Of a stretch of DNA of 39,219 nucleotides, positions 1 through 37,703 are shown piece by piece. Both the position numbers and the translations under genes were made by a program. Location: contig JAQTVL010000002.1 in assembly GCA_028706835.1 (NCBI GenBank), positions 1 to 39,219 on the forward strand, read 5' to 3'. This DNA comes from Phycisphaerae bacterium (GTDB lineage: Bacteria; Planctomycetota; Phycisphaerae; JAJVII01). The notes beneath the pieces were generated by a model, which was not told where the DNA came from, ran no database searches, and was given only the letters and a program-made list of their open reading frames with translations. Every line of letters begins with the position of its first letter. The first letter of the stretch is position 1.

Positions 1-1114
1 GCTCGATCGGGCTGGTGATCTTCTGCCAGTGCGGGCACGTGATACAGGCCGCATGGCCGAGCGTCTCGTGTACGTTCTGGCATTTCCGTGGCCCCGCTGC
101 CTGCACGGCGTGGTCGAATTTCTCGTCGGTCTCGGCCGGCCTGTAATGCGGGTGCAACCCCGAAATCTGGTGCGCCTCGGCCCGTCCATCCTGGCACAAC
201 CCGACTACGGAGAGCCAGGCGTACCATTCCGGCTCCGGTAGCGTGGCGGCGTCGTCTTTGCAGTGCTTCATCCACGTACAGCCCGCGTAGATCGGCGGCA
301 GAACGGGCTTAGGCTTGTCGTCTTGACCTGGTGCCCCAGGTGCCGCGGCGGGGTCTTTCGCCTTTCCCGCCGGCCCGCGGGCTTTCCCCGTTAACGTCCC
401 CGCGGGGTCGAACGTCACGCCCAGGTGCTTGGCCCACTCGTCAAGCGTCCAGACGGCGGTCTCATCCTGACACACGAGCAGCCGGGCCTGCACCGGCGCG
501 AACTGATCGGGCGATTTGACGTTCCAGGTCCCTGGCAACCGTACCAGCCGGTGCAACGTCGCCGTCTCCGGCCCGTCGTGCATGGCGTTGAGGCCCGCGC
601 GCACGATCGCCTTGACGAATGCCCCCTGGGCTTCATTGTCGGGCGGCAGAATCACGGGCTGCGCTAGGCGAAAGAATCCCCAGGCACCGGGGTTCCCCGG
701 CCGGCCCGTGCCCCCGCTGGCCACGATCATCTGCGCGGGCGGCCAGCCGGCCTGCTCAAACCGCTGCGCCGCGGCTTCGGGCGGCATGGTGTCCAGATCA
801 AACCACAAATACCGCACGATCGCAATGTCGGCATCCCCCGCCGACCGCGTGCCCATCCGCTGCCGGAGGACATTGCAACGCACATAGATATTGTCGTAGC
901 TCGGCCCGCCGTTGAAGCGTTCGAGTTGCTCGAAGGTGCGTTCATTCAGTTGGCCACGCGCAAAGCACAGGTTTGCGCCCCAGGCGGGGACTCGACCAGT
1001 CTCCGGCTTTTGATAACTCTGGATCTGAATCAAATCCTGCGGCTGGAACAGGGTTTCCAGGAACTCCCGGGCCATGACCCGGTCCAGAATCAGCGGGGCG
1101 GTAGGCAAACTCAC
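1..1114 (-). CDS. AEP (primase-polymerase)-like replication protein; 3' end lies outside the window
   Basis: Absent from the ORF track because it has no stop inside the window. The reverse frame is open from GTG 1114 (GTGA overlap with the upstream stop) to base 1: VSLPTAPLILDRVMAREF...YLWFDLD...VASGGTG...RLVRLPGTWNVK...CTWMKHC..EPEWYAWLSVV...CITCPHWQ. The hhhDhD and RLPGT.N.K motifs fit archaeo-eukaryotic primase motifs I and III. The C-terminal part is Cys/His-rich. Confidence 0.6.
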   Translation of the reverse strand, partial: MSLPTAPLILDRVMAREFLETLFQPQDLIQIQSYQKPETGRVPAWGANLCFARGQLNERTFEQLERFNGGPSYDNIYVRCNVLRQRMGTRSAGDADIAIVRYLWFDLDTMPPEAAAQRFEQAGWPPAQMIVASGGTGRPGNPGAWGFFRLAQPVILPPDNEAQGAFVKAIVRAGLNAMHDGPETATLHRLVRLPGTWNVKSPDQFAPVQARLLVCQDETAVWTLDEWAKHLGVTFDPAGTLTGKARGPAGKAKDPAAAPGAPGQDDKPKPVLPPIYAGCTWMKHCKDDAATLPEPEWYAWLSVVGLCQDGRAEAHQISGLHPHYRPAETDEKFDHAVQAAGPRKCQNVHETLGHAACITCPHWQKITSPIE

Positions 1115-1725
1115 GCCGAGGCCTCCGCCGACCCCGATTCAACCGCAGAGGCCGCAGAGGACGCAGAGGACTCAGAACTCGGGTCGTCCACAGGAGTCCT
1201 ATGCCGCTCTGCGCCCTCCGCGTTCTCTGCGGTCTTTCGTTCCTCCCTGACTTTGTCCAGCCACGGGCCTGCCATCCAGATATGACTGCTGAGGATTTCA
1301 CGCACCGCGGGCACCGACGGCCGCGCCCACTTTTGCCGCGGGAGCAGCACGGCCACGCACTCGGCGGTCAGCTTCGCTTTCGGCCAGCGGGCCTGGATCG
1401 CCCGGACGGCCGCCCCCAGCTCGGCCCACATGCCGCCTTCGAGCGTCGCGGACGGGCTATAACTGACCTTGCGGGGCTGCCCGTCCCAGCACAGTTTCAG
1501 GGCCCGCAGTCGCCGCCCCAGGTACTCGGCCGAGACGTTGTGCGGCCGCACGACGTCCGACACGACGACGGCCAGCACGGTCAGCGGCCGTTCGTGCAGG
1601 GCATACGCCGGCAGTTCCAGCTCGTGTTGTCGCAGCCACCGGTCGATGGCGTTCCGCAGCCAGCGCCCGTAGTTGCGCCGCTTGTCCGCTTTCCCGCGTA
1701 CGAATTGTTCGCGCTCGGCTTCCAC
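1111..1725 (-). CDS. Hypothetical phage protein (204 aa)
   Basis: Track ORF. GTG start preceded by AAGGATGG; stop overlaps the next start (GTGA). Balanced composition with an acidic Ser/Ala tail, whereas overlapping alternative frames are Arg/Pro-rich. Confidence 0.55.
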   Translation of the reverse strand: MEAEREQFVRGKADKRRNYGRWLRNAIDRWLRQHELELPAYALHERPLTVLAVVVSDVVRPHNVSAEYLGRRLRALKLCWDGQPRKVSYSPSATLEGGMWAELGAAVRAIQARWPKAKLTAECVAVLLPRQKWARPSVPAVREILSSHIWMAGPWLDKVREERKTAENAEGAERHRTPVDDPSSESSASSAASAVESGSAEASA

Positions 1726-2303: not shown

Positions 2304-4055
2304 TCATTTCCCCACCCGCACTTTCCGCCCGCGGCGGGCCTTGCCCTTTGTGCCTTTGTGCCTGCGTGCCTTAGTGCCTGTTTTCGTGGGCCGCTTGCCG
2401 CGGGCTTTCCTGACCGCCTTGGCGATCTCGGTCCCCGTCTTGTCTTTGCTCTTTGCGCTTTCAGATTTGAGATCCTTCGCCGGGGGCTCCGGCTCGGTAT
2501 CCAGCTTGAGCCCCAGCGCCTTGACCATCGCCTGCGCCGCGGCATGGCCGTCCGCTAGATTCCCGGCTTGTGGCCCGGCGACTTCTACGCTGTCCCGCCA
2601 GAGCCGATTCAAGTTCTCGCCGAGCCCCGCCAGCGCCTGGGCGGCCGTCATTTTGTTCAGGGCGGCCCACCGCTTCGCATCGGGCAGCCAGTCCTCCGAA
2701 TCGAACGCGACCGCGAATTGCAGTGCCCGCGGCTTGATCTTCCGCAGCAGTTCCGCTCGGGCCAGCTTGGCGAGCGCGACCCGCGCCGCGGCGACGTACG
2801 CCACCTGCTTCTTTCGCGTGGCGACCTGGGCCGCGGATTCCTGGGGCACGGCGCGGCCGTACCTCGCGCCCCGCGGCACCGCGCCCTGACGTACGATCCA
2901 AATGACCTTACCGGCCGCGGCCGGATCGGCGACGATCGCCGGCTCGGCCCCCGGCGTGTCCTTCCGGCACGGACTGAACGCGGAACAGCCCAGCACGGTC
3001 TTTTTGCCGCAGACCTTGGCCACTTGTTTCCGGGCCTCGGCGCCGAGCGTGTAATGCTTCTCGCTGACGATCGCCGCCGCCGGCAGCTTTTCCGCCGCCC
3101 GCGCAACGGCGGCTTTCGCGTGCGCCGCCAGCTTGCGCGCGTAGCATTCCGGGACCCGGCACTGGCCGCCGGGGCGGGCGGGCGTCTGGAGCATCAGTGG
3201 ATCGCCCGATTCGTCGAGCCGGTGCGGACAGGTGCTGCACGCCCCCGCCTTGGGCTCCAGCGCGGCGTCGTCGAGCTTCCACGGCGCCTGCGCGAGCCGC
3301 CGCAGATACGTGCGGTTGATCTCGCTGCGGAGCTGTTTGGCCGTGCGAATCCACTTCGTGGCCAGGAGCCGCCGCTGAGCGTTTTCGGGCACGAGCGCCA
3401 GTTCTTCCAGCATGCTCGCCGGCCAGCGCTCTTCGCCCGGCATCTTTTCCCACGCCGCGATCGTCGCGGGCGCGAGTCGGGTGAGCTTGCTCCGCCGCGA
3501 CACCCACGCCGGCGACTTGCCGAGCGCCTCGGCGAGCTCGCGGACGGTCCGCCCCAGCGCCAGTTGCTGCGCCACGGCCGCGCCCTCCTCGATCGGCGTC
3601 AGGTCCTGGCGGTGGAAGTTCTCGACCAGGGCCGCCAGCTCGGCCTGTTGCTCGGTGAGTTCGCGCACAATCGCCGGAATGGTTTTCCAGCCGAGCTTGA
3701 CGGCCGCACGCCACCGCCGTTCCCCGGCCACCAGCTGATAAAACAGCAGGCAGCTCGGGTGGTTTTGCGGGCTCTTGCGGACGACGATCGGCTCGATCAG
3801 ACCCGCACGGCCCAGCCCCGCGCACAACTCGGCAAAGGCGGGGCTGCGCTCGTCGCACTTGCGGTTCAACGGGTTCCGGTCGATCACGTCCACCGGCAAG
3901 AGGCGCAGGTCCTCGACAACGGAGGGGGCGGCGCCGGGCGGCGTGGTTCCAACGGAGGGGGTTGGAGTGGGTCGGCCGGCCCGGCGCCTTACGCGGGGCT
4001 GCGTCTCGGGTTCCGCGGCGGGCGCCGCGGTTTCGGTCAGTTGGTCGATCGCCAT
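2304..4055 (-). CDS. ParB/Srx-fold N-terminal domain protein with HTH, long C-terminal extension and Lys/Arg-rich tail (583 aa from the ATG at 4055)
   Basis: LPVDVIDRNPLNRK...LIEPIVVR...YQLVAGERRWRAAVKLGWKTIPAIV matches the ParB N-terminal arginine-patch motif, followed by an HTH-like GRTVRELAEALGKSPAWVSRRSKL. The ATG at 4055 has a GAGGAA RBS. The track's upstream extension (to 4136) only translates the palindrome at 4097-4111. Confidence 0.85.
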   Translation of the reverse strand: MAIDQLTETAAPAAEPETQPRVRRRAGRPTPTPSVGTTPPGAAPSVVEDLRLLPVDVIDRNPLNRKCDERSPAFAELCAGLGRAGLIEPIVVRKSPQNHPSCLLFYQLVAGERRWRAAVKLGWKTIPAIVRELTEQQAELAALVENFHRQDLTPIEEGAAVAQQLALGRTVRELAEALGKSPAWVSRRSKLTRLAPATIAAWEKMPGEERWPASMLEELALVPENAQRRLLATKWIRTAKQLRSEINRTYLRRLAQAPWKLDDAALEPKAGACSTCPHRLDESGDPLMLQTPARPGGQCRVPECYARKLAAHAKAAVARAAEKLPAAAIVSEKHYTLGAEARKQVAKVCGKKTVLGCSAFSPCRKDTPGAEPAIVADPAAAGKVIWIVRQGAVPRGARYGRAVPQESAAQVATRKKQVAYVAAARVALAKLARAELLRKIKPRALQFAVAFDSEDWLPDAKRWAALNKMTAAQALAGLGENLNRLWRDSVEVAGPQAGNLADGHAAAQAMVKALGLKLDTEPEPPAKDLKSESAKSKDKTGTEIAKAVRKARGKRPTKTGTKARRHKGTKGKARRGRKVRVGK

Positions 4056-4096
4056 GGGTTCCTCGCAGTGACGTGGCCGCGGCGGCGGCTGCGCCG

Positions 4097-4111
4097 TTTC
4101 ACTCTGAAACA
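4097..4111. promoter_or_regulatory. parS-like palindrome copy 1: GTTTCA-CTC-TGAAAC
   Basis: Read directly. About 40 nt upstream of the ParB-like ATG. Same arms as canonical parS (GTTTCA-CG-TGAAAC) but with a 3-nt centre. Confidence 0.45.
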
Positions 4112-4526
4112 GCGCAGCGCCCGCCGAATTCTGCAATTTGTACTTGCCCCCGGCGCGGTCGAATGGCTAGCTTCGGAGAGGGGGGTAGCGTGGTTTAGGC
4201 ACGAGGCCGCCGTCCGCCCTCTTATCAGACCTATGGATATGCGGGTCCGAAAAGAGATATTATGTGGTGTTCGGGCGGTCCGGAAAGAACGCCCCCGGCG
4301 CTCGGTACGGTCGCCCGTCCGGCCCCCGCGGGGCCGACGCGGCCGTGAACCCGATAATCTCGCACGCTCCTGCACGTCCGTTGCTCCGGTCCGTTACAGC
4401 GCGAGAGGCGTCCAGCGCGGGACTCGGTCAAGAGGCTTGCGCGGCTGGGACGCCCCGGGGAAGTCCCCGGCGCCGGGGGCTAATTCAGTTCAAGCACGTT
4501 TGACGTTGACCGAGCCATGGGCGCGT

Positions 4527-4554
4527 ACACTAGCCCCATCGGCCGACTTGTCAA
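4527..4554 (-). promoter_or_regulatory. Sigma-70-like promoter candidate (TTGACA-16 nt-TAGTGT) pointing toward the ParB-like gene
   Basis: Hexamers read on the minus strand just downstream of the membrane-protein stop. The promoter consensus of this host is unknown. Confidence 0.2.
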
Positions 4555-4583
4555 TCCCCCTGGACGATATTTTTCGATTTTTC

Positions 4584-4853
4584 TTATGGTAGCTTCCGAC
4601 CCAGCCAGGCGAAGAATACCACGGGCACCAGCGGGGTCGCACCAAAGTACACCGGCCAGCGGTACCCCAGCCACGTCGCGTACGCAATCCACACCCAGGA
4701 AGCGACGATGAAGGTCCAGCGCGCCGCAGCCGTCCATCTATGCTGGTCGGAAACGATCAGGCTCACGACTACCCACGCCGAGGCCGCCCCGAGGAAGCAG
4801 GCTAGCCAAGGCAGGAACTCACCCCAAAATGAATCGTCTTCCAAGCCGCCCAT
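4584..4853 (-). CDS. Small integral membrane protein (about 89 aa, 3 predicted TM segments); holin-like or exclusion-like
   Basis: Track ORF 4584..4889. The internal ATG at 4853 gives MGGLEDDSFWGEFLPWLACFLGAASAWVVVSLIV...WTFIVASWVWIAYATWLGY..PLVPVVFFAWLG, with three hydrophobic stretches. Confidence 0.55.
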   Translation of the reverse strand: MGGLEDDSFWGEFLPWLACFLGAASAWVVVSLIVSDQHRWTAAARWTFIVASWVWIAYATWLGYRWPVYFGATPLVPVVFFAWLGRKLP

Positions 4854-4991: not shown

Positions 4992-7900
4992 TCACGCCGG
5001 GACCTTTTGGAGCTGTCGCCGCAGGCGCCCCCGCAGGCTGCGCAGCTCTTTCGCCCGGGCCGAATCCGTCAAGCCCATCGCTTCCAGGTTTGTCAGGGCC
5101 TCCTCGGTGCGTCCCAGGCTGCCCTGGATGCGGGCCCGCGCCGGGTTCACCCGCTGGGTGGACAGGCCGCCGAGCAGCGCCAACGCCGCCCCGCCGCCGG
5201 TCCGATTGCCGCCTCCGACCGCGGCCTGCGTCAGCGTCTCGGCCGTCTGACTGAACCGGCTGGACGGCAGGAACCGGGCCAGGTCCGCGATGAACCGCGT
5301 TTCCTTCTGGAGCGCCGGCGGCAGCTCGCCGATCAAGCGCGTCGTCGCCTTGTCCGGGGCCAGCTTGCTGCGCCCCGTCCGCAGGTCCGTGTCCGTCAGC
5401 ATTTCGAGCAGGAAGCGCGGGAACGGCGCCGCCTGCGCTGCGATCTTCTGGAGCGAGCGCACCGGCCCCTTGCCTTCGGTCCCGAACGAAAACGGCTCTT
5501 CCAGCGCCAAGCCCGGCGAGATGAACCGCGCCTGCCCCTGCGCGTCGCTCGGAAGCTGGAACGGTTGCCGTTCCTGCAGCCAGGTCGGCAGCAGCTCGCG
5601 GACACCCTGACTCCGCGAGCCGATCGCCCCGGTCGCATAGCCGTAGCCACGCAGCAGGTTCGGGTTCTCGACCACTTCTTTAACGATCAGCGGCAGCGCC
5701 TTGCGAACGTACGTGTAGAAATACGTGATCCGCCGCAACGTGTTGGACTCGAACCGCGACAGGTCGCCGTAGTCGAACAGGTATTTCTTGACCAACCCCC
5801 CCGCCTCACGATCGCTGAGCCCCCGCGCCTTGGCTTCCAGGAACATCGCCAGCCGCCGATTGTTCTCGGCCGCGTTACCTACGGCGATCCCGGCCTTGGC
5901 CCACGGCCGTAGGAAGGGCTTGGCCACGGCGCTTGCAGCCCGTGACAACACCCCGGGCGTCTCGCCGGGTTTCGCGCCGGGTCCCCAGCCCAGCAGTTCC
6001 CGCGTCTCCGGCGCCATGCCGTGCCCCACCGTCGCGTACTCGACGCCCTTTTTGTACAGGGCCATTTCCGCATCGGTCGCCCGGCGCGCGCCCGCCGCGA
6101 TCGTCTCGCCGGCCTCGGCCGCCAGCCGATTGGTCACGGCCATTTGCAGCTTGCCGGCCTTGAACAGGTACGTCGGATCGCGGAACCCGCCCAGGTACAT
6201 GCGAAAGACGTCGTCGATCGCGTTGCGGGCGTGGAACGCCGGGAACATCTGCGTGACCGCCAGCCGGTAGACGGCATTGGTCTTATTCAGGAATTTCCAG
6301 ACCTTGCCCATGGACTCCGGATCGTTCACCAGACGATCGACCTTGGTGATCTCGCGGGCGATCTCCGCCGGCACATACTTCCCGGCGAACGCCGTCCCTT
6401 CGAGCGCCTTCGCGATCGCCTCTTTGCCGACCGCCTGCGCCGGCAGCTCGACGCCGCCCACGCGGTTCAGCTTGAGCTGGGCAAGCAGGTCGGCAATTTT
6501 CACTGCGTCCGGCCCGGCTTTTTCCGCCGGCAACGCGAACAGCGTCAGCGCCCCGGTCGCCACGCCCGCCCCGAATTGCGTCCGCGAGCCGGACAGCAAC
6601 CGCCGCGTCATGCTTTCGGCCGGGTTCTCGACGAATAGATCGCCCGGCAGGCCGCGCAACCGTCCCAGGTCGTTAATGACCGGGACCGCCAGGCCTTTGA
6701 GTTCGGGCACCCGCTCCAGCGCATAGCGGCCGGAGGTCGGGAAATCCCGAATCACCGTGCGCAGCGGATCGTCCGCGGCCAGCTTCGGCAGCCACTTGAC
6801 CGCCTCGGGATTGAGCACCCGCTGGGTGTAGCCTAAGAGGTTGTCGCTCAGCGCCTGGAGCTTCTGTCCGCTCCGCACGTCGGCGTCAAAGCCCACGCCC
6901 AGCGCCGCCCGCATCTGCTCGACCTGGAACGCCAGCGGCTTGGGCAGCAGCGGCTGCACCTGGGCATAGGTGTCTTTGAGGCTGGTCAACGTCTCGATCC
7001 GGCTGGCCGTCTTGGCCTCGGCCGCGGCGCGCAAACCAGTCAGCTTCGTCACGCGTGCCACGTCGCCGGCCTGGAGCGCGTCGGCGATCGCCGCGTCCCG
7101 CTTGGCCAGGGAAGCCGCGTGCTTCGTCGTGAGTGCATCAATCTGGCCCGCGACCTTCTGCGCCGCTTCGTCGCCTTTCTCCAGCGCCAGGTAGGTCAGC
7201 GTCTTGGCGGCCTGGAGCGGCTCCGCGCGTAAAGGGATGGCCGTTTCGCGGAGCAGTTTGTCTCGTAAATTAGACAAACCCGCCGCCTTGCCGGTATCCC
7301 CGGCCGCCTCAGCGGCGGCGATCTTCGGTCCAAACCGCGTCCGAATCGCCTCCCGACCCGGCTCGGTCGACTCCGCCAGCCGTTTCAGGGCCCCCACCGA
7401 CTCGCCGGGCTGTTCGGCCGCGAACCGCTCGATATTGCCGATCGCCGCCCGGCCGGCCTGGCCGATCTCCCAATCCCGCAGTTCCTTCGCCCCGCGGGCC
7501 TGGGCGGGTATCTCGTTGAACAGGCTGGTCGGGTCCCGGCCAAGCTCCGTGCGCACGGTCGAAAGCGTCTCCGGATTCCAAGCTGCATCCGCCAATGGGG
7601 CACTGGCGGGCCGCAAACGGCTCGCCACGGGCTCCGCGAACCGACCGACCCCCCTCCGGGCGGCATCGAGGCCCCTGAAGGCCGCTCCGCTGGCTCTGCC
7701 GCCCGTGAGCGATACCGAAATCTGTGGCCCGATGTCGAACGGCAGGCCCACGGTCAGCCCCCGCCGGTAGCCCTTCGCGGCCTGCTCCGCCAGCGAACGC
7801 GGGAACACGGGCGCATCGGCCAGGGTGTACCCCTTGCGGCCCAGCTCGCCGGCCAGCTCCGCCGCCCGGGCCAGGGCCGGGGCGGTCTTTTCGAGCTTTG

Positions 7901-9500: not shown

Positions 9501-10793
9501 TCACGCCGGCTGCCAATCGGCGAACTTGTTCAGTCCAAACCCGGTCAAATTTCCGAGCGTGCTGTTCAGCAACCCGGCGCCCGTGTCATTCGTCGAGCCG
9601 ACCGCATCCCAAGCCGAATTCGCCTGCGTCTGCCCGGCCTGGACCTGGGCGATTGTCCCGAGCAGCGCCGAGTACGCCGCGGCCTTCTCGGCCTCGGTCC
9701 CCGACCGGATCGCGTTGTTGAACCGATTGATCTCGTCCAGGAGCTGGCCCGGCAGCATCAGGTTTTCGGGCTGCTCGTTGCTCGCGCGGTTCAGGTTCGC
9801 GTTCGTCACGCCGCCCTCATACTGCGTCTGAATTCCGGCCTGCGTGCCGAACAGGGCATTGGCGAGCGTGCCGCGCGTCTCTTCGATCCACTGGTCGATC
9901 GCGTCGCCCTTGCCGTACTGGTCCTCAGCGACCGTCGTGTACGCCGTATCCAGATTGCCTTTCGTGCCGTACAGGCTGCCGAGCAACTGGGCCATGGTGG
10001 TCGCCGCCTGGTCGCCGCGGCCGGCCGACTGCACCGCGTTCTGCACCATCAGGTCCCGCCGGTTCGCGTCGATCGCCTGACCGCCACTGCTCGCGGCGAT
10101 GGCCTTCAAGGCCGCGACCGCCCCGGGTGCCAGCCCCCGGGCCGCCGCGCTGTCCTCGATCGAACTCGTCGCCAACGCTTCCTGGGCGTGTTGGTTGTCG
10201 GCATAGGTGGACGCCATGCGTTCGATGTCGGTCGGACTGTAGATGTTGGGGTTGTCCCGCACCCCGGTGAAATACTTCTGGGTCTCGTCGGCCACGCCCT
10301 GCACCTTGCCGGTGATCTCGTCGCGCCGCCCCTCCGTCGCCCCGGCCCGGCCCCGCGCCGCCGCGCTCTGGGCCTTCTGCGCGTCGATGCGTTCCAGGCT
10401 ATCCGTCCGAAACGTCCCCACATCCTCGGCCAGGCCCTTGAGCGGGCTGTTGGTCGCATTCTCGATGTTGCGGTCGAGGTACGTATTCTGCCGGCCGCGG
10501 GCGCCCTGGTTCTCGGCGAGCTGGGCCAGGTATGTCGCCCCGGTCGGGCTGTACCGGCCCAGCTCGTTCAGCGCATTGCGAAATGCGTCGCGCGTGCTGG
10601 GCTCCAGGCTGTCGATCGCGGAGATCCCGGTCTGGCCCTGCCCGACCAGCTCCTGATCGGCCTGCACGGTCCCGGGGTTATACCCACGATTCGTGCCCAG
10701 GTTCGCCAGCCGCCCCGATTCACTCTGCGCCGCCAGACTGGCCCCGCCCGTGGCCAGTTCCAGGAGCCGGTAGATCGTCATCAACGGGTCCAT
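9501..10793 (-). CDS. Virion-associated protein, 430 aa
   Basis: Track ORF. ATG preceded by TAGGAGCGGACGC (SD AGGAG). Gln/Asn/Gly/Ala-rich, non-Arg-biased composition. Confidence 0.65.
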   Translation of the reverse strand: MDPLMTIYRLLELATGGASLAAQSESGRLANLGTNRGYNPGTVQADQELVGQGQTGISAIDSLEPSTRDAFRNALNELGRYSPTGATYLAQLAENQGARGRQNTYLDRNIENATNSPLKGLAEDVGTFRTDSLERIDAQKAQSAAARGRAGATEGRRDEITGKVQGVADETQKYFTGVRDNPNIYSPTDIERMASTYADNQHAQEALATSSIEDSAAARGLAPGAVAALKAIAASSGGQAIDANRRDLMVQNAVQSAGRGDQAATTMAQLLGSLYGTKGNLDTAYTTVAEDQYGKGDAIDQWIEETRGTLANALFGTQAGIQTQYEGGVTNANLNRASNEQPENLMLPGQLLDEINRFNNAIRSGTEAEKAAAYSALLGTIAQVQAGQTQANSAWDAVGSTNDTGAGLLNSTLGNLTGFGLNKFADWQPA

Positions 10794-11496: not shown

Positions 11497-13436
11497 CACA
11501 TTTGTCCGATCGCCGAGGCCTCGATTTCGACGCCCGTAATCCGCGGCCGGTGCGCGTGCGTCCCGCTCAGCTTGAACCGCAGCGTATTGCACACCCGCCC
11601 CAGGATGAACTTGAGCAGCCCCAGCCCGGCGGTGTCCGTCTTGGCCGCGCTCGTCACGGTCGCCGACTGGTCCACGCTCACGCCGAGCGTCAGCGCGAGG
11701 GTCGCACTCGCGTCTTTATCAAACTCGACATTGGCGTCGTACACCCACTTCTTGTAGGGCGTGCCGAAATCCGTGGGGCCGCTGTCGTAGAACCATGCCA
11801 CGGCGGTCGTGCCCAGGTCGCGTTGCTCGGGGTCGCCGTCGCGCCGCAGGGCCGCCAGGTCCCCGCTCAGGCTGCCCCCATGTGCTGCCAGCCAGGCCAG
11901 CAGCCGTGCCGGCTCGACCAGGCTGCCGGCGAGCCAGCGGGCGGTGGTCAGCCCGACCGCGCCCAAGTCCCACTTGTGCCACTGCCGCGTGGGAAGGTGG
12001 TACACCAGCGTCTGGGCGGTCGTGTAGGTCGTGTCCAGGTAGCCGAACAGCACGAGCGCGTCGCGTTCCGGGTCGTAGGCCAGCGTCCGCCACTCGGGAT
12101 CGCGGTAGAGTTGGTACAGCTCGGCCACGTCGTCGCTGATCCGCTCCAGGCTGTCGGCCCGCAGCGCGTACACGCCGTCGTGCCCCGCGAAATAGACCGT
12201 GCCGCGCGCCTCGGCGACGGCGGCCGGGCTCGCCAGCCCCAGCGTCTGGTCGATGCCGCCGAGCACCGGATCGACGCGATAGCTTTCGGGTCCGCTGCCG
12301 GTCACGACGTGCAGCGAGCCGCGTTTCAAAATGAAAAGGCCGCCGGCCAGCGGCCACAGGCGCAGGGCCTCGTCGTCGGCGTCCTCGCCCACGCTCCAAC
12401 TGTTCGTCAGGCGGAAGCTGTGGTATTTCTGGAACTCCGAGCCATACAGCGTGTTCGGACCTTCGAGCACCCACAGCCGCCCCTGCCAGATACAGGCATC
12501 GTTGCCGGCGCTGGGCTGGTAGCTGGCCAGCGGGTCGAGCAGGTTCGACGCCGACTTGTCGGGGACGGTCAACTCGTCGTAAAAGTGGGTCGTGGCGCCG
12601 GGGACGAACGCGATCCGCCCGACCTTGTAATACTGGCTGTCCACCGTGTCCTGCTTGCGGTACCAGTCCACCTGCGTCACGCCGCCGGCGGCGTCGGCCG
12701 AGGTCGGCGCCACGCTCACGTGAACGCGCGAGTCCGCGGCGATCGTCACGCTGGCCGGCGTGTCCAGATTGGCCGGGCTCTGGCTGCCCGTGTCCGTGTT
12801 CACGAAGACGGCGGTATAGAGATACGTCCCGGGCGGCACCCCGCCGGGCAGCGCCGCCGCGCCCACGTAGACGTTGTCGCCGTTGCCCGGGCGCGCGATG
12901 AAGAACTGGTGAACGACATTGGCCGCCGCGCCCGTCAGGTGATACAGCACCCGGGGCACCATGTTGTACGCCGGCCGCACGAGCCACCAGTGCCCGAGGT
13001 GCACCAGCCCGCAGCGGTAGCCCAGGTGGCCGCTGCCCAGCGTTTCGCCGAACAGCACGATTTCCGAATCGTCGTAGCGGCCGGACATGAATTGTTCGAG
13101 CGGCATCAGAAACACGCACACGTACGGCGCCCCGCCGGCATCCACCTCGGCCAGCACGAGCAGGTGCGGATACCGCCAGCCCCAGGCCGAGACCACGCCG
13201 CCGTGCCGATCGTCGAGGCAGGGCACGGCCCGCAGCACGTGCCGCACGCTGATGGTCCCGCCCTGGGGCATCACCAGCTCCAGCCCCGGCCGCCGGCGGA
13301 GGTCGCCCGCGGCGGTGGTCACGTTCAGGCTGTCGTAGCAGCTCCCGGCCGGCACGCGCGTGGCGGGTCCGCGTTTCAGACCGCCAAACGGCCCGCGGTA
13401 CGGCACAAGATTTCCAGGGCTACGCGGCACACGCAT
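11496..13436 (-). CDS. Large tail structural protein, 646 aa (tail tubular/baseplate-like)
   Basis: Track ORF. The N-terminal GGLKRGPATRVPAGSCYDSLNV...GDLRRRPG pattern resembles the N-termini of podovirus tail tubular-type proteins (from memory, unverified). Confidence 0.65.
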   Translation of the reverse strand: MRVPRSPGNLVPYRGPFGGLKRGPATRVPAGSCYDSLNVTTAAGDLRRRPGLELVMPQGGTISVRHVLRAVPCLDDRHGGVVSAWGWRYPHLLVLAEVDAGGAPYVCVFLMPLEQFMSGRYDDSEIVLFGETLGSGHLGYRCGLVHLGHWWLVRPAYNMVPRVLYHLTGAAANVVHQFFIARPGNGDNVYVGAAALPGGVPPGTYLYTAVFVNTDTGSQSPANLDTPASVTIAADSRVHVSVAPTSADAAGGVTQVDWYRKQDTVDSQYYKVGRIAFVPGATTHFYDELTVPDKSASNLLDPLASYQPSAGNDACIWQGRLWVLEGPNTLYGSEFQKYHSFRLTNSWSVGEDADDEALRLWPLAGGLFILKRGSLHVVTGSGPESYRVDPVLGGIDQTLGLASPAAVAEARGTVYFAGHDGVYALRADSLERISDDVAELYQLYRDPEWRTLAYDPERDALVLFGYLDTTYTTAQTLVYHLPTRQWHKWDLGAVGLTTARWLAGSLVEPARLLAWLAAHGGSLSGDLAALRRDGDPEQRDLGTTAVAWFYDSGPTDFGTPYKKWVYDANVEFDKDASATLALTLGVSVDQSATVTSAAKTDTAGLGLLKFILGRVCNTLRFKLSGTHAHRPRITGVEIEASAIGQM

Positions 13437-15142: not shown

Positions 15143-17016
15143 GGCATCACCAGCGCTCCCCCGCCGCCGCCGCTCGTATCCGGCCGGAACACCTCGTAGC
15201 GGCCCGCGAAGCTCCAGCTCACGCCGGCCGCCGGCGTCGGCAGGCCCGTGAGGTCGTAGGTCGTATAGACCTTGCGGCTGCCCGCGTTGTTGAACGTGCG
15301 CGCCCCGGGTCCGATGGCCGCGGTACGCAAGACGACCGGCTCGCCCGGATACGACAATTCCGAAACGCTGGAGTAGAGGGTATTCGATTCGTTCATCACG
15401 TACGGCGTGTCGTCGTACGGCACGCGCACGACGCCGACCTTGCTCGAAAGCGCCGCGAGCAAGCTGGGGCTGGGGCCGTACACCAGGTCGAAGATCGCCG
15501 CGTTACCGAACGTCAGCGTGAGCTGCACGTTCATCCCGCTGGTGTCGAACGAGTGCATCCAGCGCAAGGCCGTAGCGCCGCCGGTGCGGGCGGTGCCGCC
15601 GACCAGGTGCGTCAGCCGGTCGCCCAGGTACACCGTGCCATACGGAATCGTCACGCCCGCGTCGGTCATGTCGCCGATCGACACGCCATCCCGGATCAAG
15701 GTCGAGTGCGCGGTGTTGACCAGCGGATTGTCCGAGCCGGTTACATAGTGCGGCGCTTCCAGCGCGGTCCACGTCTTGCGGGTGTGGCATTTCCAGGTCA
15801 CGGCATCATCGACCACGGTCTGCCCGACCGTCGTCGGCCAGGTCGGCTCCACGAGCCCCGTCTTGAAATCGCCGCTGCGCGCCGTGCATTCGTATTTGTA
15901 CAACAGGGCGTTGGCCGGGTTGGTCGGCACGACGAAGGCACCCACCGCCGTAACGGTGTCGGCGGCCCACGGGGACCGGGCCTCATCGTGCTTGACGATC
16001 GGGCTGGCCGTGTTCGGGTCCACGTGCCGCCAGGCAGTGTCGTGCGGATACCAGGTGGGGATGTGGACGTTCTTCGTCTGGCCCGGACCCGCATTCTGGC
16101 CGTAGTAAACCACAAACGAGCCCGTTTCCAAACGGGCGTCTCCGGTCACGGTGATCTGGCTCGTCGTCGGGCGGGTCACGATCTCGTAGCGGTGCCCGCT
16201 GGTATCGAACTCGATATAGCCGCCGGCGACGCCCGAGGATTGGAACGTCGCGGCCACCGTCGTGATCGTCGAGTTCGGCGCGGCATAAGTGATTGTGCCG
16301 CCCGTCACGGTGCCGGTGATCCGCTCGGTAATCAGGGCCACATGTCCGTTGCCAACCCATTTTCCATCGACCCCATCGACCGCCCGCGGGTCGGCGCGCA
16401 CGGTGCTGCTCCACGACGTGGCGCTGACCAGGTACAGGTACTTGGTGCCGGTGCCCGTGATCTCCAGGAACACGTAGCGGTCCGTCTCCGCCGCACCGCA
16501 GTGAAAGTACCGTTCGAGCAGGCGCGTACTGCCGCCGCCGGCGCCGCCGCCCGGAAACGGATCGCCGAACGCCACCGCGTTGGCGATGTTCGTATCCGGA
16601 CCGATCTTGACGGTGATGCTCGGCCAGTTCGAGCTGAGTTGCGTATAAAGCAGACTGAAGTAATCGTGTCCGGCGGGCAGCAGGAACCGGGCCACGGCAT
16701 TGGCCCCGGCCCGCACGGCATGACCGGTCGAATTCCCCTGGCTATTGGTATTCCAGGCCCATGTGCCGCTGACCTCGACCAAGCGCCCATCCTGCTTCGT
16801 GCTGATCCGGCGGGAATGGGGGTAGCCCGTCTGGATGGTCTGCACGCCGAGCGAGTTCAAGGAAGAGATCGAGCCCTCGTTGGCGTTGTCCCACCAGGAT
16901 TCGGCCAACGCGTATTCGGTCCACAAGCCGGTCGCCGACTGGCTCGCCGGCACCAGGCCGACATAGCCCTTCAGTTGCGCCGGATGTCGATACACGGCCG
17001 GTTGCAGGGCAGGCAT
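15139..17016 (-). CDS. Large structural protein, 625 aa (tail/receptor-binding candidate)
   Basis: Track ORF. ATG at 17016 preceded by GAGGTGAAAC. Thr/Gly/Val-rich beta-type composition. Confidence 0.65.
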   Translation of the reverse strand: MPALQPAVYRHPAQLKGYVGLVPASQSATGLWTEYALAESWWDNANEGSISSLNSLGVQTIQTGYPHSRRISTKQDGRLVEVSGTWAWNTNSQGNSTGHAVRAGANAVARFLLPAGHDYFSLLYTQLSSNWPSITVKIGPDTNIANAVAFGDPFPGGGAGGGSTRLLERYFHCGAAETDRYVFLEITGTGTKYLYLVSATSWSSTVRADPRAVDGVDGKWVGNGHVALITERITGTVTGGTITYAAPNSTITTVAATFQSSGVAGGYIEFDTSGHRYEIVTRPTTSQITVTGDARLETGSFVVYYGQNAGPGQTKNVHIPTWYPHDTAWRHVDPNTASPIVKHDEARSPWAADTVTAVGAFVVPTNPANALLYKYECTARSGDFKTGLVEPTWPTTVGQTVVDDAVTWKCHTRKTWTALEAPHYVTGSDNPLVNTAHSTLIRDGVSIGDMTDAGVTIPYGTVYLGDRLTHLVGGTARTGGATALRWMHSFDTSGMNVQLTLTFGNAAIFDLVYGPSPSLLAALSSKVGVVRVPYDDTPYVMNESNTLYSSVSELSYPGEPVVLRTAAIGPGARTFNNAGSRKVYTTYDLTGLPTPAAGVSWSFAGRYEVFRPDTSGGGGGALVMP

Positions 17017-17414: not shown

Positions 17415-17423
17415 CGCCAACCT

Positions 17424-17497
17424 CAGGGGTCAGGGTTCAGGGTTCAGGGCTCAGGGTTCAGGGGGCCACGCTGGCTGAACCCTGAACCCTGAACCCT
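17424..17497 (-). repeat. Heptamer array A: six plus-strand CAGGGTT-type units (17424-17465) facing three inverted units (17475-17497), giving a long hairpin
   Basis: Read directly. The minus-strand RNA would be GAGGGUUCAGGGUUCAGGGUUCAG-loop-CUGAACCCUGAGCCCUGAACCCUGAACCC. Lies between the capsid stop (17508) and the next ATG (17414). No U-tract. Confidence 0.7.
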
Positions 17498-19059: not shown

Positions 19060-19932
19060 TTATTCGTCCGCGATGCCCAGCAAGGCCGCGGCCTTCTGCT
19101 TGGCGGCCCCGCTCCTCAGCTCGGCGGCGGTGCTGGGCACGATGGTCTCGGCCGGCGGCCGGCCGCCGCCGCGTTCGCCGGTCGCCTTGCGGTCGGCGGT
19201 TTTGCGCTTCACGAACTCCGCCACCGTCTGGTTGGCGGCTTCGGCCGCCAGCTCGGTGCGCTCGTCGATGAACGCTTTGAGCGCGGCCTTCTTGGACCCG
19301 CCGTGCTCGGCGATGTACTCGGCGACATAGCCCAGGGCCTGGGCGCTCAGCGAGCGCAGCCGCTTGGGATCGTCGGCCAGCTTCGCGAACGCAGGCGCAT
19401 CGGCCAGCGTCTCTTTGACTTCCGCTTGCCACGCGGCTTTGTTCTTCGCCTCAAGCGCGGCGCGGTCCTCGTTGGCCTTCGCGCCCTCCAGGCGTTCGAG
19501 CTTGGCTTCGGCCGCCTTGAGCCTGGTCAGCACCGGATCGTCGTCTACGTCCTCTGCGGCCGGCGCTGATTTCTTCTTGCCGTCCGCACCGTCTGCGGCG
19601 GCGGCGGCTCGCCGCGCGACTTCGGCTTCCCATAGCGCCGTAGCCTCCAGCCGCTCGACCGGGTTCATCTTGTCCAGCTTCACGGCCAAGCGCTCCCCCT
19701 GCGCTCGCATGGCATCGGTGCAGCCGTACTGGTCGTAGGCCGCCGCGCGCTGCGCCTTGGTCATACCGGCCAGGGCGATCTCCACGGTGGCGGCAGCGGC
19801 CTCCGTGGTTGCCGCCGTTCCACTCGCCGCGGCAGCGCTGTCCGTTTTCGCCGCGGCCGGGGGGGCGACTCCGCCGTCGCTCCCCGGCTCGCTGGCGAGA
19901 AACACGTTCGTTGTCTTTCCGTTGGGCCACAT
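19060..19932 (-). CDS. Scaffolding protein candidate (290 aa)
   Basis: Lies between portal and capsid. Ala/Glu/Lys-rich helical sequence. ATG preceded by GAGAGGA. Confidence 0.6.
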   Translation of the reverse strand: MWPNGKTTNVFLASEPGSDGGVAPPAAAKTDSAAAASGTAATTEAAAATVEIALAGMTKAQRAAAYDQYGCTDAMRAQGERLAVKLDKMNPVERLEATALWEAEVARRAAAAADGADGKKKSAPAAEDVDDDPVLTRLKAAEAKLERLEGAKANEDRAALEAKNKAAWQAEVKETLADAPAFAKLADDPKRLRSLSAQALGYVAEYIAEHGGSKKAALKAFIDERTELAAEAANQTVAEFVKRKTADRKATGERGGGRPPAETIVPSTAAELRSGAAKQKAAALLGIADE

Positions 19933-22677: not shown

Positions 22678-22694
22678 TGTTTCACTCTGAAACA
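22678..22694. promoter_or_regulatory. parS-like palindrome copy 2: TGTTTCA-CTC-TGAAACA
   Basis: Perfect 7-bp arms that abut the AGGAGG RBS of the 22665 gene. Confidence 0.45.
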
Positions 22695-22799
22695 CCGCCG
22701 CGCCAGATTGCGGTCTCGCTGTTCGGCACTGCTCAATCTGCGTTTTCGTGGCCAGGGGGCCGCGGCAACCGCGACCAGCAAGCCGAGCACCTCTTGCAT

Positions 22800-22827
22800 G
22801 GCTGACGGCTGACGGCTGAGAGCTGAT
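22800..22827 (+). repeat. Second heptamer array: GGCTGAC GGCTGAC GGCTGAG AGCTGAT
   Basis: Read directly, 10 nt beyond the terminase stop. TGA lies on the plus (antisense) strand here. Confidence 0.6.
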
Positions 22828-22837
22828 CGCTCTTTTC

Positions 22838-24577
22838 TCACCATCGCCCACGCCCTCCGCCGCCCACGCTGGCCAGTTCGCGGTTGCGTTCCAGCGCCCG
22901 GCCGACCGCATCGACGCCGGCGTAGCCGATCTTCAGCCCGGTGCGCCGGGTGAATGCTTTATCCCGCTGGTCGCGCGTCAGCGGCGGGGCTGGGTAGCGC
23001 GCCGGGGCGCTGGCCACGATCAGGCGGTTCAGGAAATCGACCCCGTACTGCACCTCCTGGCCGCGGCTCTCGGCCGCCTCGCAGGTGTAGGGCTGCAGGC
23101 AAATGCCTGCCTTGCGGAAGCTGTTGATGCAGTCCGGTCGGCTGCGATCGCCCACGCCGCCGGTGAAGCTCCAGGCCTCGCACAGCCGGTGTACGTCGGC
23201 CGCGTTGTCGTCGATGCTGCGGCCCTGGGCCGCGAAGTCCGGGTCGTACCACTCGGCGAACACGTGCCCGTGGCCGGTGAAGTTCCAGAAGGTGGCGATG
23301 TAGCGGATCACGTCCACGCCGTGGTTGTTCTCGTCGCGCGGCCGCCCGCGCGGGCCGTAGGTCAGGTGCGTCAGCTCGTGCCAGAAGTGCGGGCAGGCGC
23401 CGATGTCCACCGTGAACTGCGTCGGGCGGTCGCGATGGTGGGCCACGCACAGGGTTACGAACGGGTCCACGCCGCCCCAGTCGAAGCCGCGGTAGAGCTG
23501 GTAGCCGTCGGCGAGCAATTCCCCGACCGGCCGGTGCAGGCCGTGCCGCTCTTTCCGCAACGCCGGGAACACGCGGCCCTCGGCCACGGAAAACGCTTCG
23601 TCGGGCGTGCTGGGAAAATCCTGCATGAACTTGATCAGGCTGCCGGAGTCGGCAATCTTCTGCCGCCGCCAACGCAATTGCGCGTTGCTCAGTTGTGGCA
23701 CGCGCTCCAGCAACTCGGCTTCCGCCGCAATTTCCTTCGGCTCGGTCAGCGCCGGCAGGGGGGCCTCGTCGCCCAGCACGGCCCGCGGCTCGTCGTACCA
23801 GGGCGCGAACACGAACGCGAAACTGCCCTCCCCTTTCATCGCCAGCCGCGCCCGCCGCTCGAACTCGCCGGAGGTGTCGGCCCCGTTGGCGGTCGATTCG
23901 ATCACGATCACCGTGAACGGCGAATCGGCCACCGAGTTACTGACCGAGAGCATCTGCTGCTGCACGCTCTCCTGGTCGCCGGCGACCTTGGCCAGCTCGG
24001 ACAGGTGCAGGAACTGGATATTGGCCGACGAGCTGATGTACTGCCCGCCAAAGGTCCGCACCTGGAGCCACGAATCGTGCTGGTCCTGAAAGTCGAGCGT
24101 GCTCGCCGCCGGCCACTTGGGCTGGCTGGTATGCTCCGGGTCGTACACGAACATGCGGGCGGTGATCTCGAAGATGTCGCGCGTGCTGCTTTCGGTATGG
24201 GCCACCACCTGGGCATAGCGGTGCGGATAATGCTTGACCAGGTAGTAGCCCAGGGCCTCCACGATGGTCGAGCAGCCGGGCTTGCGGTACTTGAGGATCA
24301 GCACGCGGACCGGCAGCCCCAGCTTGGCCTGTTCCAGCATGGCCAGGTACACGTCGGTCTGCAGCGAGTTCGGCACCAGCGTAATCAAGTGCGCGTCTTT
24401 GTCCTTGATCACGCACGGCCCGGTGATCGGCCCGACGACGCCGGCCGCCCGCATGCGGGCCTGCGCCGCGGCGCCCGGCGGCGTGTGCAGCCACAACCAG
24501 AAGCCCCGCAGAATCGGGACCATGGGGGTCGCCGTTTCGCTTGGGGCGGCGGTCAGGATGGCGGGGGCAACGCTCAC
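22838..24577 (-). CDS. terL: Terminase large subunit (579 aa)
   Basis: Walker-A-like VLILKYRKPGCSTIVEA, Walker-B-like FTVIVIESTANG, and nuclease-domain motifs FDWGGVDPFV and HGVDVIRYI. GTG start at 24577. Confidence 0.85.
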   Translation of the reverse strand: MSVAPAILTAAPSETATPMVPILRGFWLWLHTPPGAAAQARMRAAGVVGPITGPCVIKDKDAHLITLVPNSLQTDVYLAMLEQAKLGLPVRVLILKYRKPGCSTIVEALGYYLVKHYPHRYAQVVAHTESSTRDIFEITARMFVYDPEHTSQPKWPAASTLDFQDQHDSWLQVRTFGGQYISSSANIQFLHLSELAKVAGDQESVQQQMLSVSNSVADSPFTVIVIESTANGADTSGEFERRARLAMKGEGSFAFVFAPWYDEPRAVLGDEAPLPALTEPKEIAAEAELLERVPQLSNAQLRWRRQKIADSGSLIKFMQDFPSTPDEAFSVAEGRVFPALRKERHGLHRPVGELLADGYQLYRGFDWGGVDPFVTLCVAHHRDRPTQFTVDIGACPHFWHELTHLTYGPRGRPRDENNHGVDVIRYIATFWNFTGHGHVFAEWYDPDFAAQGRSIDDNAADVHRLCEAWSFTGGVGDRSRPDCINSFRKAGICLQPYTCEAAESRGQEVQYGVDFLNRLIVASAPARYPAPPLTRDQRDKAFTRRTGLKIGYAGVDAVGRALERNRELASVGGGGRGRW

Positions 24578-24585
24578 GCAGGACT

Positions 24586-28415: not shown

Positions 28416-29591
28416 TCACCGCCATTTGCTTTTTTTCGCGCCGCCGCGCGCGGCCTCTTTGGGGGTCGCGCCTTCGGCCGGGGCGGCGGTCCGTGCCGCC
28501 CCGGCGTCCGGCGCCGTCGTCACTGGGAGCTCGACGGCGACATCCGGGGCGGCCGGAGCCGCCCCGGCGTCGCACTCTTTTGGCGCATCGCCAAGTGAAT
28601 TTTGAACCGGGACCGCATCCGGCGCGACAGTCAGCGCCGGCGCGGCCCCGGGGGCGGTCAGTTCTTCGGGTTTCTTATCCAGGGGACAGATGATTTCATT
28701 CAGGAATAGCAGGCCATGCGTCAACCCGTACCGGAAGCTGGCCGCCGTCGCATGGCCCCCGCCACCGTGCCGCTTCGCGAGCGCCCCCACGTCGAATTCG
28801 TTGCGCCGGCTGCGTAGCTCAAAGGTCACTTCGTCCGCGTGAATCACCGCGACCACGGCGAATTCCGCCCCCGGATTCTGGTCGAGCATCCGGTGCGCCA
28901 GATCGGAGGCCTGAAAATGGCTCGCGCAGGCCACGATCACGTCATACGCCTCGGGGTCGGCGTCCGGCGTTCCGCACAGGCCATCCGACGCCGGTGTTTC
29001 AGTCTGAAACACGCCGGCCCAGGCCTGGAGCGCCAGGAGTCCGATCTGCCGCTGGTACGCCCGCCAGATCGCCCGGCCTTCGCTGCGCAGGCTCTCCAGG
29101 CTGCCCAGCAGGTGCTCGGCGGTGTCGAGCGCGAAGTCGTAGCTGGCCAGGGCCGCGTTGATCTCATGGCTGTCGGGCAGCTCGAATTTCCACAGGTCGC
29201 GGTCCTCGACGTAGGCCAGCAGCTCGGGCAGCGGCTCGGCCGGCCGCAGAAAAGACCACGCCAGCACGCAGGCCGCGTGCGTGGGGTCGTAGACCACCTG
29301 CACGTTCTCCGGCCGCGGCCCGGCGTAGTCGAGCGCGCAGCTCGCGTGGTGGTCGATGACCAGCACGGCCGCGGCCTCGGCGCCGAGCCGGGTCACTTCG
29401 GCGAACGACTGCCCCAGGTCGAGCACCACAACGGCCTGCCCTTTGGAAATCGGCGGCAAGGGCACGCCGGCCCGCCAGGGGGTGTAGTCGGCGTCCCGGC
29501 GATAGCCGCGGTAGGCCGCGTACGCGGCCCACTGCCCGTCGGGGTCGTCGTGATAAAACACCTGCGTGACTTTGGCGTCGGCGACGTTCAT
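28416..29591 (-). CDS. DHH/DHHA1-family phosphoesterase (391 aa) with an Ala/Pro-rich C-terminal tail
   Basis: Motifs in order: VFYHDDPDG (DxD), VVLDLG, VLVIDHH (DHH), YVEDRDLWKF, and the DHHA1 signature KRHGGGGHATAASF. ATG at 29591 in an ATGA overlap with the upstream gene. Confidence 0.8.
   Translation of the reverse strand: MNVADAKVTQVFYHDDPDGQWAAYAAYRGYRRDADYTPWRAGVPLPPISKGQAVVVLDLGQSFAEVTRLGAEAAAVLVIDHHASCALDYAGPRPENVQVVYDPTHAACVLAWSFLRPAEPLPELLAYVEDRDLWKFELPDSHEINAALASYDFALDTAEHLLGSLESLRSEGRAIWRAYQRQIGLLALQAWAGVFQTETPASDGLCGTPDADPEAYDVIVACASHFQASDLAHRMLDQNPGAEFAVVAVIHADEVTFELRSRRNEFDVGALAKRHGGGGHATAASFRYGLTHGLLFLNEIICPLDKKPEELTAPGAAPALTVAPDAVPVQNSLGDAPKECDAGAAPAAPDVAVELPVTTAPDAGAARTAAPAEGATPKEAARGGAKKSKWR
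28994..29012. promoter_or_regulatory. parS-like palindrome copy 3: GTGTTTCA-GTC-TGAAACAC (8-bp arms), inside the DHH gene
   Basis: Read directly. Falls in the linker between the DHH and DHHA1 halves (translated AGVFQTETP). Confidence 0.4.
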
Positions 29592-32114: not shown

Positions 32115-32131
32115 TGTTTCATTCCGAAACA
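32115..32131. promoter_or_regulatory. parS-like palindrome copy 4 (one inner mismatch): TGTTTCA-TTC-CGAAACA
   Basis: Read directly, in the divergent intergenic region. Confidence 0.35.
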
Positions 32132-37473: not shown

Positions 37474-37703
37474 GGCGCACCTGCCATTTCATTTTGAAAC
37501 GCCGGCCGCACACGGGCCAGCTTGCAGCGCAGCTCCCACGCTGTGATGCGCGCCCCCAGGGCCTTGCGCCGCCGGCCGTAGGCTTCCGCTTTCTCCAAAT
37601 CCAGGCGCGAGGCCGCCACGGCCGCACACACCGGGAACAGTTCTTCCTGCTGCGCGAGCAGCGCCCGCGCCTCGGTGAGCAGCTCTTCGCATTCAGCGTC
37701 CAT
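37461..37703 (-). CDS. Small helical protein (80 aa)
   Basis: The ATG at 37703 is preceded by GGAGGAACCCCCCG: MDAECEELLTEARALLAQQEELF... It overlaps the stop of the NTPase gene. Confidence 0.45.
   Translation of the reverse strand: MDAECEELLTEARALLAQQEELFPVCAAVAASRLDLEKAEAYGRRRKALGARITAWELRCKLARVRPAFQNEMAGAPCKP
37486..37500. promoter_or_regulatory. parS-like palindrome copy 5 (degenerate): ATTTCA-TTT-TGAAAC
   Basis: Read directly, 12 nt upstream of the ASCH start, inside the last codons of the preceding small ORF. Confidence 0.3.

Follow-up and report, generated by a model that had tools for sequence, protein, structure and literature searches.

The window analysed here, the whole 39,219 bp stretch of phage DNA (67.8% GC), carries six dispersed copies of an AT-rich palindrome of 15–17 bp, GTTTCA-N3-TGAAAC or in its extended form [T]GTTTCA-N3-TGAAAC[A], together with a gene for an orphan ParB-like protein. 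Judged from sequence patterns and by analogy with KorB, VirB and BisD, it is probable, at roughly 60%, that the six palindromes are loading sites for this protein, acting as a clamp of the KorB/VirB/BisD kind rather than on a ParA-dependent centromere.

To our knowledge, the ParB-CTP clamps with functions beyond segregation (KorB, VirB and BisD) are recent and still few, and each of them is found on a plasmid or an ICE. Prophages encode around 1% of ParB homologues, and next to nothing is known of what these proteins do (PMC12704722). The phage family described here is a compact test case, with one orphan ParB, six conserved sites and natural motif-negative relatives. Together with a likely host parS that is 1 bp different, it makes ParB site-spacing specificity, insulation between host and mobile element, and clamp control of a viral genome addressable, and it adds to very sparse knowledge of Planctomycetota phages.

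Number, position and conservation of the palindromes

The minus strand is the coding strand for nearly all genes of the window. Genes with recognisable products include a P22/SU10-type portal (19949-22153), a terminase (22838-24577), a tRNA-Met (28268-28340), a DHH/DHHA1 protein (28416-29591), a clamp-loader-like AAA protein (32564-33232), a short XerC-like integrase (33613-34314) and a ParB-like protein of 583 aa (2304..4055, minus strand). A DUF927 primase-helicase gene is split, with its N-terminal part at 1138..2 and the DUF927 domain at the window end (37693-39219); the ORF at 2-1138 aligns with the N-terminus of the 1093-aa DUF927 protein of L131, one of the related contigs described below. 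Since parts of this gene stand at both ends, the window was taken to be a complete, circularly closed genome cut inside the DUF927 gene. The two reading frames do not join seamlessly at the junction, where 1–2 bases may be missing or duplicated.

An exact search for GTTTCANNNTGAAAC returned three copies, at 4096-4110, 22679-22693 and 28996-29010, against none in 100 dinucleotide-preserving shuffles. Allowing up to one mismatch added 12323-12337, 32116-32130 and 37486-37500, giving six observed copies where 0.02 were expected from dinucleotide-preserving shuffles; the N3 site in full is TGTTTCACTCTGAAACA. A preliminary description had listed five dispersed copies and considered them too many for chance. 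The enrichment is real and stronger than was claimed, a sixth copy at 12323-12337 having been missed, and the first copy, which had been given as 4097-4111, lies one base away from that position. GTTTCA-N3-TGAAAC was the only recurring AT-rich palindrome in the window, in which the same arms with any other spacer from N0 to N8 gave zero copies.

Control DNA was searched for the N3 motif with up to one mismatch. There was one match in 1.32 Mb around bacterial parB genes (in a genome of 36% GC), none in 0.91 Mb of bacterial parB-locus DNA with a GC content of at least 60%, none in 0.54 Mb of chromosomal loci (for the most part Planctomycetota and further phyla of high GC), and three in 1.1 Mb of viral ParB loci. 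Perfect matches in the control chromosomal loci numbered 73 for N2 versus zero for N3. The shuffles and the 2.9 Mb of control DNA rule out chance or a composition artefact as the source of the six sites.

Site 1 (4096..4110, GTTTCACTCTGAAAC, perfect) precedes the ParB ATG at 4055 by 40 nt. Site 2 (22679..22693, also GTTTCACTCTGAAAC, perfect, with TGTTTCA/TGAAACA arms) falls between the terminase stop and the ribosome-binding site of the small gene before the portal, where it adjoins the AGGAGG-N6-ATG of this gene, which starts at 22665. Site 3 (28996..29010, GTTTCAGTCTGAAAC, perfect, with 8-bp arms GTGTTTCA) is inside the DHH-family gene 28416-29591, between the matches to the DHH and DHHA1 domains. 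Site 4 (32116..32130, GTTTCATTCCGAAAC, one mismatch) belongs to a divergent non-coding region of 535 bp at 31821-32355; a promoter-like site facing rightward, at 32203-32231, follows 73 bp downstream of it. Site 5 (37486..37500, ATTTCATTTTGAAAC, one mismatch) lies 12 nt upstream of the GTG start at 37473 of the gene 36976-37473, and site 6 (12323..12337, GTTTCAAAATGAAAA, one mismatch) is inside a 646-aa structural gene. These placements agree with those described earlier for sites 1 to 5 (about 40 nt before the ParB-like gene, at the ribosome-binding site of the gene between terminase and portal, in the linker of the DHH gene, in the divergent region, and 12 nt before a start codon). The name ASCH that had been attached to the gene behind site 5 is unconfirmed, as this gene had no ASCH match in Pfam or NCBIfam.

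Three of the six sites are intragenic, and promoter and terminator scans found no sigma-70-like promoter or intrinsic terminator overlapping any of them. Around the circle, successive sites are 8.2, 10.4, 6.3, 3.1, 5.4 and 5.8 kb apart, a spacing more even than random (P ~0.015, from a post hoc test on the SD of the gaps).

Site 1 alone is embedded in a longer palindrome at 4083-4123 with 14-nt arms, GCTGCGCTGTTTCA GAG TGAAACGGCGCAGC on the minus strand. The transcribed strand of this palindrome is fully paired with one G.U (-28 kcal/mol), and the other strand has a C/A mismatch. The palindrome belongs to a non-coding stretch upstream of parB (4056..4590, minus strand), which contains a promoter-like TTGACA-N17-TAGTGT at 4552-4524 and has its arrangement and several sequence blocks in common with L131 17330-17838. 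Possible readings of this stretch are a long leader, an ncRNA and a region of DNA that acts in cis; searches against Rfam gave no match at the sites or in the parB leader.

The GenBank phage collection held no near relatives, and single-protein scans of IMG/VR and GTDB genomes with ParB or portal yielded no useful close ones. The relatives used here are syntenic metagenomic contigs reached via portal homologues of 42-53% identity. It was found that two of these lineages, L126/L131 and L129, carry the motif; their portals are ~49% identical to that of the window and their GC content is 68%. Three motif places are shared by the window and these relatives, namely the terminase/next-gene junction, the divergent region and a structural gene of 625-646 aa. 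Copies between the terminase stop and the start of the next gene occur at L126 5888 (GTTTCATTTTGAAAG) and L129 8379 (TTTTCAAGGTGAAAC), syntenic with site 2, and the divergent region beside the integrase block has a perfect GTTTCAGAGTGAAAC at L129 1394, syntenic with site 4. In the structural gene the motif lies ~1,050-1,100 nt from the gene start and in the same codons at 12323 in the window, 15372 in L126 and 18551 in L129, and it is because of this conservation that the copy at 12323 was counted as real. Further sites were present in L131, of the L126 lineage, at 11893, 16932 and 20558, the last of which is perfect.

With up to two mismatches, the motif was absent from L125 and L128, which are more distant from the window (62-63% GC), and from the prophage relatives L133 and L134 (68% GC), for which 21.5 and 15.4 kb were covered. 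The two prophages have the structural module, including a homologue of 1169 aa, yet are without the motif. As to the comparison of N3 with N2 spacing that had been proposed as a check, relatives have N3 and never N2, and the 0.54 Mb of chromosomal loci contained no N3 copy with up to one mismatch.

Codon choice at the intragenic copies points in the same direction. At the position in the structural gene, motif-positive phages read CTT TTC ATT/GTT TTG/CCG AAA and L125 and L128 read CTC ... CTG AAG/AAA, so that the motif-negative relatives have GC-rich codons there. The codons of site 6 (CTT TTC ATT TTG AAA) are rare, CTT accounting for 2% of Leu in the window. Site 3 is spelled GTG TTT CAG ACT GAA ACA, in which TTT, ACT, GAA and ACA are rare codons; ACT and ACA account for 2.9% and 2.4% of Thr in the window. 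The use of rare codons within the intragenic copies shows that the DNA sequence itself has been selected against codon bias. Together, the patterns of enrichment, conservation and codon use indicate that the six sites are real, functional and lineage-specific.

Among 14 copies from the window and its relatives, the arms are conserved, the spacing is always N3 and the three central bases vary (62% A/T). The substitutions observed (G1>T/A, A6>G, T10>C, C15>G/A/T, A12>T) are never compensated and leave the palindrome broken. Conserved arms, a variable centre, a fixed N3 and uncompensated changes fit a dimeric sequence-specific DNA-binding protein, and this fits the pattern better than a structural RNA. 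A hairpin of RNA or single-stranded DNA, with a 6-8 bp stem and a 3-nt loop, could act as a translational operator or processing signal near a ribosome-binding site, as an N4-type hairpin promoter or as a priming signal for the DUF927 primase. Such a role would suit sites 2 and 5, which lie directly 5' of start regions, the terminase/next-gene junction site, which is kept in three lineages, and site 1 with its 14-bp stem on the transcribed strand; the early promoters of phage N4 likewise have a stem-plus-triloop geometry. However, the core hairpins are very weak for a genome of 68% GC (-0.5 to -7 kcal/mol), it is the arm sequence that is conserved over the 14 sites while pair-breaking changes go uncompensated, and site 4 is in a divergent region that does not look transcribed. 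No phage RNA polymerase was found in the window, and L133 and L134 share the structural module but not the motif. A hairpin function is therefore quite improbable, and a protein bound to the duplex is the reading followed below.

The orphan ParB-like protein and its predicted link to the sites

The product of 2304..4055 combines a ParB_N domain with a helix-turn-helix (HTH). It scored 80.6 bits against Pfam ParB_N (cut-off 26.3), with a weak HTH_ParB match, and 104.7 bits against TIGR00180 (cut-off 58.45). The CTP motifs were tested as GERRxRA (box II) and ENxxRxDL (box III); both are intact in the phage protein, where they read GERRWRA and ENFHRQDL. They align with their counterparts in solved structures of Noc, Spo0J and ParB and are invariant in 14 long homologues. 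An AF2 model, with pLDDT ~90 for residues 50-280, matched Noc, ParB and KorB in Foldseek with target TM values of 0.64-0.73. In sequence the protein is closest to chromosomal ParB and Noc, and P1 ParB and VirB gave no match to it at E<=0.001. Profile scores, motifs and structure model thus identify it as a genuine ParB-family protein, as the preliminary description had proposed, and as a predicted CTPase. Its middle region is Zn-ribbon-like and partly similar to PRTRC-type ParB, with four Cys (273, 276, 299 and 304) that are invariant among the long homologues, and its C-terminal tail is very basic. Besides ParB and the integrase, no sequence-specific DNA-binding domain was recognised in the scanned ORFs.

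The ParA-activating N-terminal motif of ParB is LG[KR]GL (PMC12704722). The N-terminus of the phage protein, MAIDQLTETAAP...RVRRRAGRP, has no such motif, and the scanned ORFs contained no ParA or CbiA-type gene, the sole P-loop protein being clamp-loader-like. The phage therefore shows neither of the two hallmarks of a ParABS system, a cognate ParA gene and LG[KR]GL. As an integrase is also present, the use of the sites for episome partition, which had been suggested earlier, is unlikely.

Among the compared regions of the relatives, parB was the only gene to track the motif, a co-occurrence that is based on two to three lineages with L125, L128 and L129 left out. The ParB of L131 occupies the same genomic position, after a 1117-aa tail-end protein and a non-coding gap of ~500 nt and before the primase. 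It is 37% identical to the window protein overall, and the helix stretch GKSPAWVSRR is fully identical, forming one of the two longest identical runs between the two proteins and equalling the CTP motif VAGERRWRAA in length. In L133 and L134 the homologous tail-end gene is the last of the prophage, and neither ParB nor the motif is found there (in 21.5 and 15.4 kb). Directly upstream of parB, L131 has no intact site, and a degenerate remnant is present at the position of site 1.

The recognition helix of the window protein is GKSPAWVSRRSKLTRL. Its SPAWVSRRSKL differs from the canonical parS-binding SRxHxANxxRLL, and the Arg of the GKSR motif is lost, so the identity of the phage arms with those of parS is not explained simply by homology. 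The prediction that ParBs with a similar helix would be accompanied by the motif failed for two unrelated prophages, P0003 (IGRSPAWVARRARL) and P0004, whose 19 kb and 6.8 kb were without it. Such a motif was likewise absent around the distant long homologues P0005, P0006 and P0008 (loci L002-L004). In metagenomes, genomes and viral contigs, profile-guided scans found the GKSPAWV helix on short contigs only. Two apparent matches from these scans, L241 and L243, proved to be one contig with a large inverted duplication and are not real sites.

An exact scan of IMG/VR for TGTTTCANNNTGAAACA returned mostly single chance matches. Two contigs with several copies were rejected as relevant carriers. 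L008 is unrelated; on this 48%-GC viral contig, positions 363-470 hold five tandem TGTTTCAAAATGAAACA copies at ~22-bp spacing, an iteron-like array within an ORF that is followed by AT-rich DNA and looks like a lambda-type iteron origin using the same 17-mer. L039 has four dispersed copies but is likewise unrelated, being a phage that encodes a family-A DNA polymerase and, within 13 kb, no ParB. On a further viral contig, L249, an orphan phage ParB also has palindromes of its own close by; its helix is LGKSKTWVSRRAKIARM, and two palindromes TGTTGTCA-N4-TGACAACA lie directly upstream of parB (9917-9964).

The palindromes could instead be operators of a different dimeric DNA-binding protein, either a small phage regulator or a host transcription factor, with the ParB gene unrelated or merely regulated. 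Around half of the phage ORFs have no family match and many are small, which makes a hidden regulator possible, and despite the integrase no CI/Cro-like repressor was recognised in the phage ORFs, so that a regulator appears to be missing. The non-canonical type of the ParB recognition helix and the occurrence of similar-helix ParBs without the motif also favour a different binder. Yet no promoter-like element overlaps any site, and the location of three of the six sites inside genes, one of them conserved in three lineages, is unusual for classical operators. Moreover, the half-site is that of the ParB family, combined with the P1/VirB spacing (PMC6410309), and only parB tracks the motif in the regions compared. 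We regard a different binder as unlikely. The lack of promoter overlap and the intragenic position of half of the sites make the palindromes look like ParB loading sites rather than classical operators. Of the two roles put forward in the preliminary description, the first is thus retained, with the shared helix core of the L131 ParB in its favour, and that of classical operators is not.

A host assignment was obtained from one relative. In L133 (16676-21506; L162, L166) the prophage abuts a threonine synthase 77-80% identical to those of Phycisphaerales MAGs, which suggests that the phage family probably infects Planctomycetota (Phycisphaerae). The parB loci of Phycisphaerae MAGs carry GTTTCACGTGAAAC, with a 2-nt centre. 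The arms of the phage sites are the same, in keeping with the earlier statement that they are those of canonical parS, and the likely host parS would therefore differ by 1 bp of the centre only. Recruitment or titration of the host chromosomal ParB, by which the phage would hijack the host ParABS or disturb host segregation, would account for the identical arms, and a prophage relative does sit in a Phycisphaerae-like contig. However, all copies in the phage and its relatives are N3 and none is N2, and the 1-bp insertion rotates the half-sites relative to each other. VirB binding is strongly lowered by a changed half-site spacing, the tested change being a 2-bp insertion (PMC6410309). The phage also has its own ParB, and the host of the window is deduced from that single relative. 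A role for host ParB is accordingly highly improbable, and the phage ParB is retained as the probable binder.

Comparison with known ParB systems and proposed mode of action

The canonical chromosomal parS is TGTTNCACGTGAAACA, with GTTTCAC as its half-site. The phage resembles canonical ParB-parS systems in the identical arms of 6-7 bp, in the ParB_N and HTH core of the protein and in the frequent location of sites within genes. It differs in having a centre of 3 nt at every copy instead of 2, so that none of its copies is a 16-bp palindrome with a 2-nt centre, and in lacking a ParA gene and a ParA-binding motif. Further differences are the recognition helix, a protein that is twice as long, and sites that are evenly dispersed rather than clustered near the origin.

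The 3-nt centre had been called odd at first, a view that comparison with P1, VirB, BisD and KorB does not sustain. In P1, whose ParB is of type Ia, boxes A2-A3 of parS read ATTTCA-AGG-TGAAAT, ATTTCAAGGTGAAAT, and this sequence was matched at 100% in K02380.1, within the incB region annotated as centromere-like. At icsP, VirB has the site ATTTCAGtATGAAAT (ATTTCA-GtA-TGAAAT), in which the spacing is critical (PMC6410309). P1 A2-A3, the VirB site of Shigella pINV and the phage sites thus have the geometry [A/G]TTTCA - 3 nt - TGAAA[T/C] in common, and VirB is, as predicted for the phage protein, an orphan ParB-type CTPase, which regulates transcription from sites possibly far from promoters. Unlike those of P1 and VirB, the phage sites have G/C as outer arm bases, which they share with chromosomal parS; the phage showed no second motif of the boxB kind, and its sites are spread across the whole genome. 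VirB further differs in its H-NS context, none being known for the phage. What is special to the phage sites is the combination of chromosomal-parS arms with a 3-nt centre; the 3-nt centre itself is ordinary for non-canonical ParBs.

The KorB operator OB is odd-centred. The same holds for the BisD site bisS, GAGCTATCCCCnGGGGATAGCTC, of which there are two copies 2 kb apart, inside inrR and ssb (PMC12409273). KorB-OB of RK2 and BisD-bisS of ICEclc are systems in which ParB-family CTP clamps without a partition-only role load at dispersed, odd-centred palindromes, some of them intragenic, as is proposed for the phage. By sliding, KorB and BisD affect promoters that are far from their sites (PMC11790492, PMC12409273). 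The sites of KorB are scattered over RK2, and its structures were matched by the model obtained for the phage protein (TMt 0.70). In contrast, the site sequences differ, no KorA-like or BisC-like partner was identified in the phage, the place of a plasmid or ICE is taken by a tailed phage that carries an integrase, and the phage protein has the Zn-ribbon-like middle region that is partly PRTRC-type ParB-like.

N15 is a temperate phage whose ParB-family protein, as is proposed here, reads several separate palindromes on the phage genome. Its IR sites are reportedly dispersed and said to affect phage gene expression, in work by Ravin & Lane of 1999 and Grigoriev & Lobocka of 2001. The ParBs with dispersed sites that we know of belong to plasmids and to phages P1 and N15, and we know of none for a phage of the present type. 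The N15 SopB sites are IR1-4 (PMC7205306), with the sequence GTGCGACC-N2-GGTCGCAC. As a prophage, N15 is a linear plasmid that encodes a cognate SopA ATPase and for which a role in partition is proven, in contrast to the phage described here, where an integrase is present and ParA is absent.

In its architecture the phage resembles a sliding-clamp regulator, since its ParB is an orphan, the six sites are dispersed and their centre is odd. From the example of KorB, VirB and BisD, we infer that a ParB dimer would read the two TTTCA half-sites via its helix-turn-helix, that site binding together with CTP would close the N-terminal gate, and that the closed clamp would then slide off onto adjacent DNA. 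With six sites 3-10 kb apart on a circular 39-kb genome, the whole phage chromosome would be within sliding range. The most likely outcome would be a genome-wide modulation of phage transcription or DNA organisation, a ParA-driven partition being less likely. A centre that exceeds that of the probable host parS by 1 bp would separate the ParB systems of host and phage. We tentatively suggest, as a possible but doubtful overall picture, that this integrase-bearing tailed phage, whose host is probably one of the Planctomycetota (Phycisphaerae), covers its entire chromosome by means of an orphan ParB-CTP clamp and six loading sites at regular spacing. The clamp would be a KorB/BisD-like layer of control or organisation, with the arms of the host parS shifted by 1 bp against cross-talk, and it might also take the place of a classical repressor, which is missing.

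Other features of the phage genome

Between the integrase and a convergent ATP-grasp gene lies a non-coding region of ~680 nt with lower GC (~60%) at 34315-34991, which is a candidate attP region. The gene 26842-28218 contains at least six tandem repeats of 48 nt (16 codons) at 27263-27643; it has an E1_FCCH-like match, and its product is probably a fibre or decoration protein.

Tandem heptamer repeats were observed in short intergenic spots directly upstream of gene starts in the window, L129 and L131. In the window they are located at 17422-17494, 22798-22818, 24577-24609, 24714-24746, 29606-29638 and 31613-31648, in L129 at 1418-1452, 1763-1783, 3518-3545, 5536-5563 and 16432-16459, and in L131 at 19379-19406. 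On the sense strand the units of the window are (CTGAACC)3-6 and (CAGCCGT)3, and those of L129 are (GCTGAGT)n and (GATTTGA)n. After the capsid gene, at 17422-17494, two inverted heptamer arrays form a long hairpin. The heptamer unit GGTTCAG is similar to the palindrome arm GTTTCAG.
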